Positions 55,923 through 61,997 of a DNA stretch of 64,000 bases are shown here, piece after piece. The notes beneath the pieces were generated by a model, which saw nothing but the letters and a program-made list of their open reading frames with translations, made no database searches and had not been told where the DNA came from. The DNA comes from Acidobacteriota bacterium (GTDB lineage Bacteria > Acidobacteriota > UBA6911). The stretch is from assembly GCA_963664705.1 (NCBI GenBank), contig OY761556.1, positions 4,608,001-4,672,000 of the forward strand, read 5' to 3'. Each line of letters begins with the position of its first letter. Position 1 is the first letter of the stretch. The translations under genes were made by a program, and so were the position numbers.

Positions 55923-56264
55923 TCAGGCCACGAGACTGTTACTGTCTTTGATCTGGCGGCGCAATACATCGTGAATCAGATTACAGGCCTGCTTCACTTC
56001 CGGAATTGAGAGAGAACAGAAGACCCGCTTCCCTTCCCTGTGGGTATTGATCACGCCCGCGGACTTGAGTATCGCAAGGTGTTGCGAGATGTTTGGGACC
56101 GAAATCCCAAGCATTTGCTGCAACTCCGCCACTGACCAGTCCTGCTTCCCCAATTGATGCAGGATAAAAAGACGGATCGGATTTGCAAACGCTTTACAGA
56201 TCCTGGATTGTCTCTCGAAGATCTCCCAGTCGGGCTGTTCCTTTTTGGCTTTTTCCTTCTTCAT
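55923..56264 (-). CDS. ArsR/SmtB family transcriptional regulator
   Basis: KAFANPIRL, SVAEL, NISQHLAILKSAG, REGKRVF. Confidence 0.9.
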   Translation of the reverse strand: MKKEKAKKEQPDWEIFERQSRICKAFANPIRLFILHQLGKQDWSVAELQQMLGISVPNISQHLAILKSAGVINTHREGKRVFCSLSIPEVKQACNLIHDVLRRQIKDSNSLVA

Positions 56265-56502
56265 TGCTCAGTTGCTCCTGGAAGCCATAGATTACCACTC
56301 CTTGGCCGGTTCTGCATCGAAGATCCACATTATCTGAATGTGCTTCGCTCTTGCTCTCCTGAGCGCGGCCCAGGGCCGCAGCCATGACAAATACCATTAC
56401 TGCGAATAGAATTGGCCTTCCGTAACGCATGAAGGTAGCCGCTATTGTGAGTTCACCGCGTATACAATATTTCCGATCTGATGAGGCTGTTTTTATCATT
56501 AG

Positions 56503-56518
56503 TTGCGATAGTTCGCAA
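56503..56518. promoter_or_regulatory. Palindromic operator candidate (ArsR?)
   Basis: TTGCGA-TAGT-TCGCAA between the divergent arsR-family and cytochrome c genes. Confidence 0.4.
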
Positions 56519-56654
56519 GTAATATTTTTAACAAGTCAGATAGTTGCTATTAGTTTTGCATGGCGTCGGGAATTTATTTTGATCGTGGATATGGTATAAA
56601 ATCAGTCCGGGCTCCGATGGGGCCCGGACTATTGTTGATACGGGAGAAGATAAA

Positions 56655-56957
56655 ATGAAGAAGTTATGCATCCTCGCGGCCGTTGCTGTTTGTATTGCGA
56701 CCGCTGCCTTCGTGCTTTCTGCAGAAAATGGGGCAGCCCTCTACGACTCAAAATGCTCGATGTGTCATGGCGACAAGGGAGAGGGCAATCCCGGCGCGGG
56801 TCTGCCGGCAGTCAAGGGAACATCCTTTACCGCGGAAAAGCTGGTTGCCTACATTACGAAAGGGGACAAAAGTAAAACCATCCATGCAGAGCCGGTCGGC
56901 GATCTCAATGAAGACCAGGCGAAAACTCTTGCCGAATTCATAAAAAAGATGAAATAG
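56655..56957 (+). CDS. Monoheme class I cytochrome c (c553-like)
   Basis: Signal peptide, GAALY, CSMCHG heme motif. Confidence 0.88.
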   Translation: MKKLCILAAVAVCIATAAFVLSAENGAALYDSKCSMCHGDKGEGNPGAGLPAVKGTSFTAEKLVAYITKGDKSKTIHAEPVGDLNEDQAKTLAEFIKKMK

Positions 56958-57023: not shown

Positions 57024-57725
57024 TCAATCGATCTTGCTGCGCAGTCTTCTGTAGTAGGATCCGGATTGATACAGAGCCGCCAGCGGGTTATGCCCCAGCA
57101 CTCTGTCCTTTACAGCCAACACCGTCAGCGGCACTTCGCAATATTTGATAAACAATGTATCGTGCCCGATGCAAAGTCCAAGCAGGATGGCCATATCCAC
57201 CCTGGCACGATTCAGAATCAGGGCCTGGGCAATAGGATTGCACATGCTCTCCCACTTATCCGGTCCCGCAATTTTCTCCTCGGCTCTGATGCCGATCTCT
57301 TCTTTCGGTACACAACCGGCCTTGCATTGAACGGAAAATACTTCAAAATCATTTTCTTCCAAAATGTCCGTCAAAACAGCTGCCTCTCTTGCCAACCCGC
57401 CGCAATGGGCGATCCCCAGCGTTTTATAGCTGCACTTTCTGGCAAACTGAATGAGCTCTTCGATGCGAGGCAGCTTTGCCCTGATACCATCCGAAAGTCG
57501 TTCAAAGCACTGAAACTCCTGAACGGATGCCAGCCGGGCAAATTCCTTAATTGCGGCTTTGTCGTATTCAACGGCAGCCTCGGCAAACACATCCGGCATC
57601 ACCTTCATGGGACAATAGGGCGGATACTGTTCGGGCAAGGGCGCTGCATCTTCCGCTGAAGCTCCCCGTTTTTCACATATTTTCACCGAACATCGCGCGC
57701 ATTGAAGGCTTCTTTTCTCTTCCAT
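57024..57725 (-). CDS. DUF1847-like Cys-rich metal-binding protein
   Basis: CARC, CPM, PRIEE, GIAHCGGL, CKAG, MCNPIAQA, GLCIGHD, KDRVLGHNP. Confidence 0.85.
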   Translation of the reverse strand: MEEKRSLQCARCSVKICEKRGASAEDAAPLPEQYPPYCPMKVMPDVFAEAAVEYDKAAIKEFARLASVQEFQCFERLSDGIRAKLPRIEELIQFARKCSYKTLGIAHCGGLAREAAVLTDILEENDFEVFSVQCKAGCVPKEEIGIRAEEKIAGPDKWESMCNPIAQALILNRARVDMAILLGLCIGHDTLFIKYCEVPLTVLAVKDRVLGHNPLAALYQSGSYYRRLRSKID

Positions 57726-57787
57726 CGGCTCATCCTATTCTGTGAAAAGCCTCAACGACCTCATTTGGCCGGGCCCGCGGCAAATAC

Positions 57788-58624
57788 TCAATCGAATTCG
57801 ACAATACTGCCAGCCTTGCAAAAAATAAATTCATCCCCAAATTGTTGAGACAAAAAGCTCATTGCTCTGAGATCCGTGCAATGGCATAAGCCCATCATCC
57901 GGACTCCAAACTCGCGCAAAGCAGCCACGGTTTGCAGGATTTGCTCCTGTTGAGCATCGAGGAGGTGCGATCCGCCGATTACCGCCAGTATCCGCGCTTC
58001 CCCGGTCAAACTCATCGCGTGCAACAAAGTATTCACCAACCCTCTGTGCGCACAACCTAAAAGCACTACTAAACCGCGGGCCGTTTTAACGATGAGTGCC
58101 TGGTCGTCCATTACCGGATCAGGTCGCAAACCGCCTTCATCTCTAACAAAAAGAGCGGAGTCTACCGCTTCGAATTCAGTAACCAGCGGGATCTCACCGG
58201 TTGTTACCATCGACCGGCTAATCTGAACTGGCCCTTTACTCGGAACAAACTCGGCACCCAGATTTTCCAGCTCCGCACGCGAAAATGGAATGCCTATATA
58301 CTTTCCCTGCTCCCCTTTCCGGAGTGAGAACTTGGCTTGCCATACATCGGGATGCGCAATTATCTCGATTTTCCTTCGCATCCGACGCAATACGTCATGC
58401 AATCCGCCCGTATGATCGAAATGGCCGTGACTGAGAACTATCTTGCTGACGCACCGCAGATCTATGCCGAGAGTATCGGCATTATACACACAGGAACTCC
58501 CTTTCCCCGCATCCAGAAGAACATTCCCTTCATCCGATTCAATGAGAATGCTCAGACCCCACTCCCCAATGTAATCTCCCATCGAGGCATTATTTTCGCT
58601 TAGCATTGTTACCCGTATTCCCAT
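57788..58624 (-). CDS. MBL-fold metallo-hydrolase (COG1237-like)
   Basis: SHGHFDHTGG, DDQAL, GCAHRG, GGSHL, CHCT. Confidence 0.88.
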   Translation of the reverse strand: MGIRVTMLSENNASMGDYIGEWGLSILIESDEGNVLLDAGKGSSCVYNADTLGIDLRCVSKIVLSHGHFDHTGGLHDVLRRMRRKIEIIAHPDVWQAKFSLRKGEQGKYIGIPFSRAELENLGAEFVPSKGPVQISRSMVTTGEIPLVTEFEAVDSALFVRDEGGLRPDPVMDDQALIVKTARGLVVLLGCAHRGLVNTLLHAMSLTGEARILAVIGGSHLLDAQQEQILQTVAALREFGVRMMGLCHCTDLRAMSFLSQQFGDEFIFCKAGSIVEFD

Positions 58625-58742
58625 ACCTCTCCCTGGGGCAGGACCGAAACATATCCATTATCTACAGCGACTTATTCCAATATAGGGCACTAAACTCTAT
58701 TTTCGCCCTAATTATCTGTACGGTTGATATCCTTAGGTTCGG

Positions 58743-59681
58743 TCAATCCGACCCTGCGACTGTCGGGTATCCCTTGCTGCGCCAGGCGTCCAGACCACCC
58801 TCCAGCGGACGGACGGGGTGAATCCCTTTACGCTTCAAAAGCAGCGCCACCCGTGCGCTCGTCGCCTCATTGGGTCACGTGCAGTAAAGAACCACCTCAC
58901 GATGGCGGGCAAACAGGGCACTTCCTTTTCCCACCTTCGATGCATCCATGCGAACGGCGCCGGGAATCATTTCCGGATCCTCATCGAAATCCAACGCGTC
59001 GCGCAAATCGATAATCACCGGGCGCTCGCCCTCGTCCAGTCGGCTCTTGAGCTCTTCCACGCTCATTCGGGCAACCCGCAACTTTTGCACGAATCTCCGG
59101 CGGGAGAAATATTTGTAGAAAATATACCCGGCCAATCCCAACCCTGCCAAAGCCACCAGTTTCCCGGCCAGAATCCCAACGACCTGGATAGCGCGCAGAA
59201 ACTCCTCGCTGAGCAGGTAGCCCATTCCGAGAAACACGCTGGACCAGATGAGAGTTCCGGTAATATCAAAAAGCAGGAAGCGCCGAAGCTTCATATTGAT
59301 CGCACCGGCCAGAGGCGAAGCCGCCGCGTTGAGTCCGGGAAAAAATTTTGATATCAGCAAGGACCGTGCGCCCTGCTTTAAATAGATCTCCGTTGTCCTG
59401 CGTACGCAGGAATCCGGCTCCAGCGAAATCCGGCACAAGAGCTTGAGGATCTTTTTCCCTTTTAGCCGTCCAAGGTAATACCAGATCAGATCGGCAGCGA
59501 CCGCGGCAAAAACGACGCTGGCGAATATCCTCGTCAAGTCCATCCGCCCTCTTCCCGCAAGAGCACCAGCCGACAGCAGCACAGGGATTGAGGGGATCGG
59601 GAAACCCAACTGTTCCGCAAATATCCATGCAACAATCAGACTGTAGCCATGATGAAAGAGAAAATCCGCAATAGAACTCAT
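58743..59681 (-). CDS. DedA/VTT-rhodanese fusion, probable selenoprotein (UGA at 58875-58877 read as Sec)
   Basis: DedA motifs EQLGFPIP and SKFFPG. The rhodanese domain continues in frame past the TGA: LYCT-U-PNEATSARVA...RPLEGGLDAW...GYP, with the next stop at 58743. Confidence 0.85.
58843..58860 (-). promoter_or_regulatory. SECIS-like hairpin
   Basis: AGCGC-ACGGGTG-GCGCT starts 16 nt after the UGA, with a G-rich apical loop. Confidence 0.5.
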
Positions 59682-59987
59682 CAAGACTGTATACCCCGCA
59701 GAACCGAATGATTCAAATTACATTTTCGTGATCCACCAGCGTGTGCATCGAATGCCCCTGGGGATGAACTAACACGGATGAACTCGACATCGTTCTGGCC
59801 CTGGCCAGGACAAGGAATTCCCTAAGAAACACCTAAGCCGGGCCGATATATCAAAGACAGTGCTTCCAGCACAAGCAACAGCAGGTTCTTTAGCAGCAGG
59901 CAGCTTGGATTCGGGGCATTGCATATCCTGCAGCGCATCATTGACGCTGTTCCGCAGGACATACATCCGAGATCTTGGAGAGGACTC

Positions 59988-61997
59988 ATGCGCCTAAAAG
60001 TCAGTCAGAAGATATTCATCATCGGGATGGTTCCCCTGATTGCGTTTATCGGCTTTGCCGCATTCCATATCTGGCGCAGCCTGGATGAATCTACCACGAT
60101 GCAGACGATGCTGCTCAACATCGATCTGGTCAAAGCTGCATCCTCTACGATTAACGATGTTCAGCGCGAGCGCGGGCGCACCGCCTTGTTTCTTTCAGGC
60201 ACGAGCAAGTTCGAGGAGGTTGAGGCACTACGAAAGACTACGGACCAGCACATGTCCGAACTCCTGCAGACTCTCTCGCATGCAAAAATACCGGACGAAG
60301 CCAAGCAGCCAGGCGCCGATATCGCCGCCAGGCTGGAATCCATGCGCCTCGAGTATAACCGACCCAATTCAGGCCTGCGCAAACAGGAAATCCGCCAGTA
60401 TACCGAATTCATAAAAACCCTGCTGCAGCTGCAAACAGGGGCGGCCAACGCCAAAACAACAAGAGGTTTCGGAAAGGTGCTGTCAAGCCTTACGCTGCTG
60501 GAAGCTGCCAAGGAAAGCGCAGGTCAGTTGCGGGCCTGGGGATCCAGCATTCTGGCCGAAGACAAGCCGCTCGGCGATGAGGAATTCTCAATCGTACTAA
60601 AACTAAAGGCGGAAACCGATGCCCACCTTGCGTCCCCGGCCCTTATTTTGAAAAAGGAAACCTCCACAAAACTGAAAGAGCTCTCGAAATCGGAATCGTG
60701 GGTTGAAACCGACAATATCCTGAAAACCATAATTTCAAAATCACGCACCGGGAATTATGGGATTTCAGGCAATACCTTTTTCTCAACAATTTCAAACAAG
60801 CTGGACGGGATTTCCGCGCTGGTAACGATGGAAATGGAGGCAATGTCAAGCCAGCTCAAATCCGATGCGGCGGACGTGCGCCAGAGCCAACTTGCGGTAT
60901 GGGCTACGGCGATCATAATCTGTGCATTTACCATCGCCATTATCTGGATATTCACCAAAGACACCATCAACCGGCTGAAAACATTGACCGCCTCGTTAAG
61001 AGATATTTCCGAAGGCGAAGGCAATCTGACCGTAAGACTGGATGCATCCGCGCAAGACGAAATAGGAATGCTATCCGCATATTTCAATAAGTTCGTTGAA
61101 AAGATCCAGAAACTGGTGGGCGGCATTGTGGAACAAACTCACACTCTTGCCTCAACAGCCCAGGTTCTGACCGGGGTTGCAAGTCATGTCTCCTCACGAT
61201 CCACGGAAACAACGGACCGCACCTCAACGGTTGCGGCGGCAGCGGAAGAAATGAGCGCCAACACCGCATCCGTAGCTTCGGGAGTGGAACAGGCAAGCAC
61301 AAATCTTACCTCTGTGGCCTGTGCCACCGAGGAAATGAGCGCAACCGTATCGGAGATTGCGGCCAACTCTGAGAAAGCCAGAGCCATCACGGAGCAGGCT
61401 TCCAATCAGGCTCAAAGCATCTCCTCTTTGATGGAGGAATTTGGGCGGGCGGCACGCGAAATCGGCAAGGTCGTCGAAACCATCACCGATATTTCCTCCC
61501 AAACAAACCTGCTGGCTCTCAACGCCACGATCGAAGCGGCCAGAGCGGGTGAAGCGGGGAAAGGATTTGCCGTTGTTGCCAACGAAATCAAGGAACTGGC
61601 GCGACAGACTGCGGCTGCGACTGAAGACATCAAAACCAAAATCACGGGAGTTCAAACCTCTTCCGGCAGTGCCATCTCGGATATCGAAAAGATCGTGGGC
61701 GTGATCAATGAAATCGGTGGAATCGTCACAGCCATTGCTGCTGCAATCGAGCAACAGGCGACGGTCACCAAAGAAGTGGCGGGCAATATCAGCCGGGCAA
61801 CAGAAGGCGTCAAAGATGCAAGCGATCGAGTGGGTCAAACGGCATCCGTTTCAAAATCCATTGCGCAGGATATCTCCAGCGTCAATGCAGCGGTGGAGGC
61901 AATCGCACAAAACGGCCAACAGGTCCAGGCCAGCGCCAGAGAGCTGTCCACACTTGCAGAACGCCTGAATACTCTGGCCGCTCAATTCAGTATCTAA
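59988..61997 (+). CDS. Methyl-accepting chemotaxis protein with NIT-like periplasmic sensor
   Basis: Two TM helices, DVQRERG and KESAGQLRA motifs, HAMP (DEIG), [27 protein letters not shown]. Confidence 0.92.

Follow-up and report, generated by a model that had tools for sequence, protein, structure and literature searches.

An in-frame UGA predicted to encode selenocysteine in a DedA-rhodanese fusion of Acidobacteriota

A fusion of a DedA membrane domain with a rhodanese domain is encoded on the minus strand of a 64,000-nucleotide stretch of an Acidobacteriota genome (the window hereafter), and an in-frame UGA in its gene is very likely decoded as selenocysteine (Sec), which would yield a full-length protein of 312-313 residues. 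The called open reading frame (58875-59684) terminates with ...VVLYCT at a TGA codon in the context YCT*PNE. A first-pass annotation of the window had noticed that this frame continues for 43 codons, and the same 43-codon sequence was recovered here: beyond the TGA at 58877-58875 the frame is open for exactly 43 codons, the final stop being TGA 58745-58743 (minus strand). The candidate starts are ATG 59681 and, one codon upstream, TTG 59684; residue numbers given below count from the TTG and are lower by one in the ATG numbering.

58743..59684, minus strand: gene of the predicted DedA(VTT)-rhodanese selenoprotein, 313 codons from TTG 59684 (312 from ATG 59681) plus a TGA stop
58875..58877, minus strand: in-frame TGA, predicted Sec270 (C-T-U-P-N-E), codon 270 in the read-through frame

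The bases around the TGA agree with contigs assembled from runs X1 and X3, which show 0 differences from the window over 58400-60000. This identity speaks against an assembly error, the two runs being one sample that is possibly the source of the window's DNA and not independent biology. A plus-strand reading of 58743..59681 was rejected, a continuous frame being absent, and a promoter and terminator scan around the gene returned nothing informative.

The codons past the TGA had been taken for the second half of a rhodanese fold, and Pfam bears this out with a near-complete rhodanese match of the read-through protein, spanning 101 of 102 profile positions.

59214..59597, minus strand: DedA/VTT membrane domain PF09335, residues 30-157 (Pfam, E 5.4e-13)
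58776..59063, minus strand: rhodanese domain PF00581, residues 208-303 (Pfam, E 1.5e-12)

An AlphaFold2 model of the fusion, built from a 95-row alignment with Sec modelled as Cys, has a mean pLDDT of 89.4 and a pTM of 0.76. The Foldseek matches listed for the C-terminal domain at E <= 0.001 are rhodanese-like or unnamed structural-genomics chains, and the solved structures that match the fusion by Foldseek and HMMER alignment are rhodanese domains only, with no DedA fusion among them.

Two other accounts, a true stop in a gene that is truncated or decaying and a variant code under which UGA means Cys or Trp, together appear very improbable. At column 270 of 88 homologous loci (30-66% identity to the window protein) the codon is TGA in 54, TGC or TGT in 31 and another sense codon in three, and TAA or TAG in none. 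The frame past the TGA stays open for 37-85 codons in 53 of the 54 TGA loci, the remaining one ending with its contig, and the aligned stretches of these loci contain no further stop codons. The expected alternation of Cys and TGA is present, with an intact downstream frame, and neither a decaying frame nor a TGA unique to the window's genome was seen among the 88 loci. Both the retention of TGA at such divergence and the complete absence of TAA and TAG argue against a stop. Moreover, 12 of the 13 full-length matches among 60 relatives carry one TGA, and lineages without Sec genes retain the fusion with Cys replacing Sec.

In a sample of the phylum, the fusion was found in 73 of 401 genomes and its TGA form in 45 (the tally includes the window's genome, G000, and an unpublished genome, G082, used nowhere else). 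On a FastTree tree of 167 rows, built with the loop masked, Sec rows are scattered and Cys groups are mostly nested among them; the tree implies 10 Sec/Cys changes, at least seven of them forced by well-supported branches. The pattern fits repeated Sec-to-Cys replacement on a tree whose root is not established and many of whose Sec rows were chosen by their TGA pattern. A DNA-pattern scan of GTDB gave at least 120 matches. Of the full-flank matches listed, 66 of 80 are DedA-fused, and these 66 comprise 49 from Acidobacteriota (four labelled Ca. Acidoferrum), eight from Rokubacteria/Methylomirabilota, four from Pseudomonadota, three from Myxococcota and one each from Binatota and Verrucomicrobiota.

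The genome also contains the machinery that the first-pass annotation had named as a check, with selA, selB, selC and selD each present twice. Two selA, two selB and two selD score over curated cut-offs, and two tRNA-Sec genes were called by ARAGORN and confirmed by Rfam.

G000:C1 3072623-3078309, 3461774-3463132, 3657373-3659256, 2046792-2047721 and 6559014-6559112: two complete Sec gene sets, from profile searches

One selD of this genome itself has an in-frame TGA. The first set is clustered and comprises selB, selA, a selD fused to a small Cys-rich/AhpD-like tail, and tRNA-Sec; the second is scattered. Two selA genes also occur in four genomes of the same genus (G002, G007, G012 and G020). 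Among genomes with the TGA form, selA is present in 51 of 51 and selB in 50 of 51, the selB-less genome (G047) being 94% complete in 490 contigs; among genomes without it, selA and selB are each present in 4 of 29. This search covered 80 of 82 eligible genomes, the two least complete being left out. The background in the phylum is 296 of 401 genomes, the 25 selA-lacking genomes without TGA belong to one family (f42), and an independent-pairs test found only four Sec/Cys pairs on the tree, none discordant, too few for significance.

Since TGA terminates 1350 of the 3854 long open frames of the window's genome, it is a normal stop there, and genome-wide UGA reassignment was ruled out; the same count weighs against a variant code at the fusion. 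In favour of such a code one could point to a third tRNA-SeC call by ARAGORN, which is not tRNA-Sec by Rfam.

G000:C1 1625651-1625722, minus strand: 72-nt tRNA-like element with a UCA anticodon (ARAGORN), matching the generic Rfam tRNA model only, at 43 bits

Its acceptor stem is mispaired and CCA is absent; it is probably a degenerate tRNA.

By established Sec biology, SelB would very likely bind a hairpin downstream of the UGA and bring Sec-tRNA to it. A hairpin had been reported to begin 16 nt past the UGA, and a 5-bp stem does occur at 58859-58843.

58843..58859, minus strand: predicted bacterial SECIS spanning +16 to +32 downstream of the UGA, with its loop G at +23 (58852), from folding and family conservation

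Taken alone, this hairpin is weak, a point in favour of a true stop. It folds at -7.4 kcal/mol with z = -0.2 against shuffles, and longer segments fold otherwise. The published bSECIS model has a G in the first two loop positions, a spacing of 16-37 nt and a minimum free energy <= -7.5 kcal/mol (PMC13188914). The G of the window's hairpin takes the second loop position only when A21.G27 is the closing pair, a mismatch that occurs in 2 of 53 TGA genes. A loose scan of the genome for a hairpin plus Cys returned 721 sites. With z about 0 and so many loose-scan sites, the hairpin was rejected as stand-alone proof of Sec; its value as evidence lies in its conservation across the family alone. Pairs 19-29 and 20-28 are intact in 53 of 53 TGA genes; G23 followed by G or U at 24 is found in all 53 versus 3 of 31 Cys genes; and the mean fold energy of the region is -10.6 in TGA genes versus -4.8 in Cys genes. 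None of the 50 loop-forming Arg codons at +8 is CGC, versus 47% of the Arg codons elsewhere in those genes; judged by this usage, codon +8 is under synonymous constraint. Base +24, left free by the GTDB pattern, is G or T in 120 of 120 among the matches listed.

Gene callers were expected to truncate such a gene, and the window's own record indeed has 268 aa, ending at the UGA. The NCBI record of the nearest relative (MGD0100158.1) is likewise a 268-aa 'VTT domain-containing protein'. Among the best 120 protein matches, 109 read C-x-C-P-N-E and 11, including the window's record, end at YCT; the best 150 cluster representatives divide into 38 that stop at this motif, 87 that continue past it and 25 that are fragments or do not contain it, with U printed in none. 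The predicted Sec form is widespread and routinely truncated in records.

Whether this Sec form had already been catalogued was left undecided by the first-pass annotation; the answer is yes for the CxU domain, whereas the DedA fusion was not found in the published catalogues covered. The CxU rhodanese domain is an already catalogued selenoprotein form, namely form 3, NF041203, in a 2026 catalogue of 119 families (PMC13188914), and a CxU rhodanese selenoprotein is also described in PMC9312934. NF041203 (rhodanese_LYCAU, form 3 / COG0607 form 2, CxU; representative TKB26178.1) has the same LYCxUPNE loop with Sec at the equal position. No other NCBIfam model matches the window protein better, and all 95 aligned members are hit by it. 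Against it the window protein reaches 88.2 bits, short of the cut-off of 115, and none of the NCBIfam models is passed; the best E-value among the 95 members, 1.4e-30, would correspond to about 106 bits by scaling. The NF041203 representative consists of a short rhodanese domain standing alone, preceded by a hydrophobic N-terminal leader (126-position model; deep-Sep supplement); in the window protein, by contrast, the rhodanese domain follows a DedA domain and is predicted to be cytoplasmic.

The terms DedA and VTT are absent from the main text of the BSepDB, SelCysML and deep-Sep papers. Together with SNARE they are also absent from the main text of PMC13188914 and PMC9312934, and as protein names from the available parts of the BSepDB and deep-Sep supplements, the BSepDB file being a partial genome list. 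A search of open full-text literature found no paper combining DedA, rhodanese and selenoprotein, and the papers it listed included none on the fusion. Since the CxU domain is catalogued, only the DedA fusion appears uncatalogued, and BSepDB itself, subscription papers, bioRxiv supplements or U-bearing RefSeq records may hold fusion sequences under form 3. The kind of recoding is not new and the Sec-bearing domain is known; the DedA fusion is a new architectural variant.

Related fusions with Cys instead of Sec are annotated as 'DedA family protein/thiosulfate sulfurtransferase GlpE' fusions (QWQ14116.1; an ORF of strain CH34, NC_007974.2). They have the same architecture, with C-x8-C in the DedA domain and C-x-C-P in the rhodanese loop. 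P. aeruginosa PA1209 (311 aa, PF09335 plus PF00581; PMC12893004) is likened to the fusion by domain content only. Single-domain rhodaneses of the GlpE/PspE type have in common with the fusion the fold and the Cys that starts the loop, whereas the length and sequence of the fusion's active loop are non-canonical; the GlpE model matched 17 of 95 fusion members, weakly.

The first-pass annotation described a C-T-U active-site loop. The loop is as described, with the qualification that the canonical catalytic residue of rhodaneses corresponds to Cys268 and that Sec270 lies two residues on.

58881..58883, minus strand: Cys268, aligned by HMMER to the active-loop Cys of solved rhodanese domains
59406..59435, minus strand: Cys84-x8-Cys93 pair in the basic helix-loop-helix of the DedA domain (family alignment)

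All 150 family rows have Cys268, 147 of them have Sec or Cys at position 270, and the core residues D226/R228/G297/W301 are retained in the family; Sec would mark the loop as redox-active. Compared with the solved rhodanese 3tp9_A, the active loop has about two more residues (two extra profile positions in the HMMER alignment), so that sulfurtransferase activity cannot be assumed. The pair in the DedA domain is nearly as constant: C84 and C93 are each found in 116 of 116 TGA forms, and in 34 and 32, respectively, of 34 non-TGA forms. Both cysteines are kept in 120 of the best 120 protein matches and in 128 of 149 cluster representatives longer than 200 aa, and they are also found in Cys forms from Ralstonia and Cupriavidus (C. 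metallidurans). C93 is missing in two rows only, both also without a thiol at 270 and both from one clade, a single event at most. The thiol at 270 has been lost in a divergent clade of second-copy fusions (L107, L113 and L116, from genomes G308, G208 and G322), two of which lack Cys93 as well. Residues 70-106 contain nine K/R, and the linker preceding the rhodanese domain is also rich in Lys and Arg. By the positive-inside rule, both the Cys84/Cys93 loop and the linker are likely cytoplasmic; the pair and the rhodanese domain are predicted to lie on the same cytoplasmic face.

We tentatively propose, with somewhat less than even confidence, that the fusion relays sulfane sulfur or selenium by thiol/selenol chemistry at the inner membrane, receiving the atom and handing it on. 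The Sec part of the first-pass proposal of a Sec-containing sulfur or selenium transferase is upheld by the TGA/Cys alternation, the Sec genes and the conserved hairpin; the transferase part is a suggestion of the kind made here. In such a relay, Cys268 would accept a sulfur or selenium atom as a persulfide or selenotrisulfide from donors such as thiosulfate, polysulfide or selenite-derived species. Sec270, the faster nucleophile, would resolve or release the atom from Cys268, and the Cys84/Cys93 pair would exchange it with the DedA membrane domain, or else re-reduce the C-x-U loop. The observations in favour of the relay are the Sec/Cys alternation at position 270, the conservation of the Cys84/Cys93 pair as far as Ralstonia and Cupriavidus, the joint loss of C93 and the thiol at 270, and, both described below, the lack of conservation of the flippase Asp and second Arg and the selenite link of a CH34 DedA. 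On the strength of the invariant Cys pair, the Cys268/Sec270 loop and the lost flippase residues, we favour the relay over three other readings, each of which accepts Sec insertion.

One of these, which we consider unlikely, does without sulfur transfer: Cys84, Cys93, Cys268 and Sec270 would together bind a metal or metalloid (of the Zn, Cu, Hg or As type) at a single site, which would gate or load a transporter of the DedA type. Four conserved thiol or selenol groups predicted on one face would suit such a site, several Sec-containing metal-handling proteins are listed in the 2026 catalogue (PMC13188914), and a DedA has been linked to the extrusion of indium (PMC8679861). Both the window's genome and G002 have an ArsR-family gene close to the fusion. 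Against a metal site, Cys268 occupies the rhodanese active-loop position with the D226/R228/G297/W301 core retained, and conserved metal-resistance neighbours are absent across 150 loci with short flanks. The same loci (flanks of 1.5-2 kb) gave no sulfur or selenium clue either, the neighbour clusters being lineage-specific. Within these flanks no conserved operon was found around the fusion: of the window's neighbours the ArsR homolog alone recurred, once. In the window, the neighbours at 57024-58624 (minus strand) and 55923-56957 include same-strand downstream genes for an MBL-fold hydrolase and a Cys-rich DUF1847 protein and, nearby, a small cytochrome c gene and the ArsR/SmtB regulator gene, of which only the last recurs, in G002.

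A second reading, in which a DedA lipid flippase or scramblase is switched by a redox-sensing rhodanese domain, seems to us rather unlikely. It is suggested by the family context, since the COG0586 subfamily, home of the UndP flippases, includes rhodanese fusions (PMC10127716); according to the same source, the connection of these fusions to UndP is unclear and UndP flippases are defined by four residues, two acidic ones at re-entrant helix 1 (E39 and D51 in YghB) and two basic ones at re-entrant helix 2 (R130 and R136). The COG0586 flippases (YghB/YqjA, UptA) share with the fusion PF09335, the first of the acidic residues and one of the basic ones; in the fusion Glu24 (98 of 116) and basic residue 113 (Lys in 115 of 116) are retained. 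In contrast to these flippases, the fusion has lost the equivalents of Asp51 and Arg136, has Lys for Arg130, and has gained the invariant Cys pair and the rhodanese domain. Position 33, the Asp51 equivalent, is mostly V/I/A/L/F, with Asp outside the five commonest residues, and position 119, the Arg136 equivalent, is S/N/G/A/Q in 116 of 116, with no Arg. These positions were mapped by way of a stand-alone DedA of the window's genome, whose motif presumably corresponds to the YghB residues. Also against a flippase, UptA and DedA equivalog models score 47-52 bits versus cut-offs of 236-300, and stand-alone DedAs are encoded separately in the genome, one of them with canonical motifs. The role of DedA-rhodanese fusions is treated as an open question in PMC10127716, and the Cys pair and the lost flippase residues offer specific testable residues for it.

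The third reading, a membrane-anchored thiol-disulfide oxidoreductase whose C-x-U acts on disulfides of proteins or small molecules and has nothing to do with sulfane sulfur, we regard as improbable. Predicted bacterial selenoproteins are mostly thiol oxidoreductases (PMC13188914), and TsoB, a rhodanese/DsbD-like fusion selenoprotein, is a precedent; the fusion, however, has neither a thioredoxin fold nor a CxxC motif, its fold being that of a rhodanese. TsoB (NF045694) and the YeeE/YedE thiosulfate-transporter selenoproteins resemble the fusion in joining Sec chemistry to a likely membrane domain but have other membrane domains and other Sec motifs; only 2 of 95 members were matched by TsoB, and those weakly.

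A broader extension of the relay, doubtful at present, is that the fusions are a distinct, ancestrally selenium-using branch of DedA that gave up lipid-carrier flipping and became transporter-enzymes for chalcogens (sulfane sulfur or selenite). In these, the membrane Cys84/Cys93 pair would give the atom to the Cys-x-Sec loop of the rhodanese domain. If so, they would be among the most widespread overlooked selenoproteins of Acidobacteriota, and an old link between DedA and selenite would be explained. Papers citing the original work relate that a DedA protein of C. metallidurans CH34 was linked to selenite uptake. CH34 (NC_007974.2) encodes a 324-aa ORF of the DedA-rhodanese fusion family, in the Cys form. 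The selenite-linked DedA may itself be a rhodanese fusion. In the passages covered of the CH34 genome paper, and in 12 of its 13 supplements, dedA is not mentioned.

Other putative Sec loci occur in the window's genome. A stand-alone rhodanese paralog has the same loop and hairpin, and immediately upstream of it is a formate dehydrogenase alpha gene, which contains an in-frame TGA of its own; the paralog is possibly a sulfur donor for the formate dehydrogenase cofactor.

G000:C1 4399494-4399835, minus strand: stand-alone rhodanese paralog, YCT*PNE plus the same hairpin, 90.3 bits on NF041203
G000:C1 45074, minus strand: in-frame TGA followed by a hairpin, context C-C-E-F-U-A-Y, from the loose hairpin scan

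A UGSC-related protein has expanded to 35 paralogous loci on G000:C1 (for example 6868825-6870747, minus strand; query about 600 aa). In 31 of these 35 tblastn loci TGA stands at the same U-x-x-C column, most of them with a hairpin about 10-26 nt downstream, and the copy tested scores 46 bits against NF041046 (cut-off 125). The C-C-E-F-U-A-Y locus resembles the hydrogenase delta-subunit selenoproteins.
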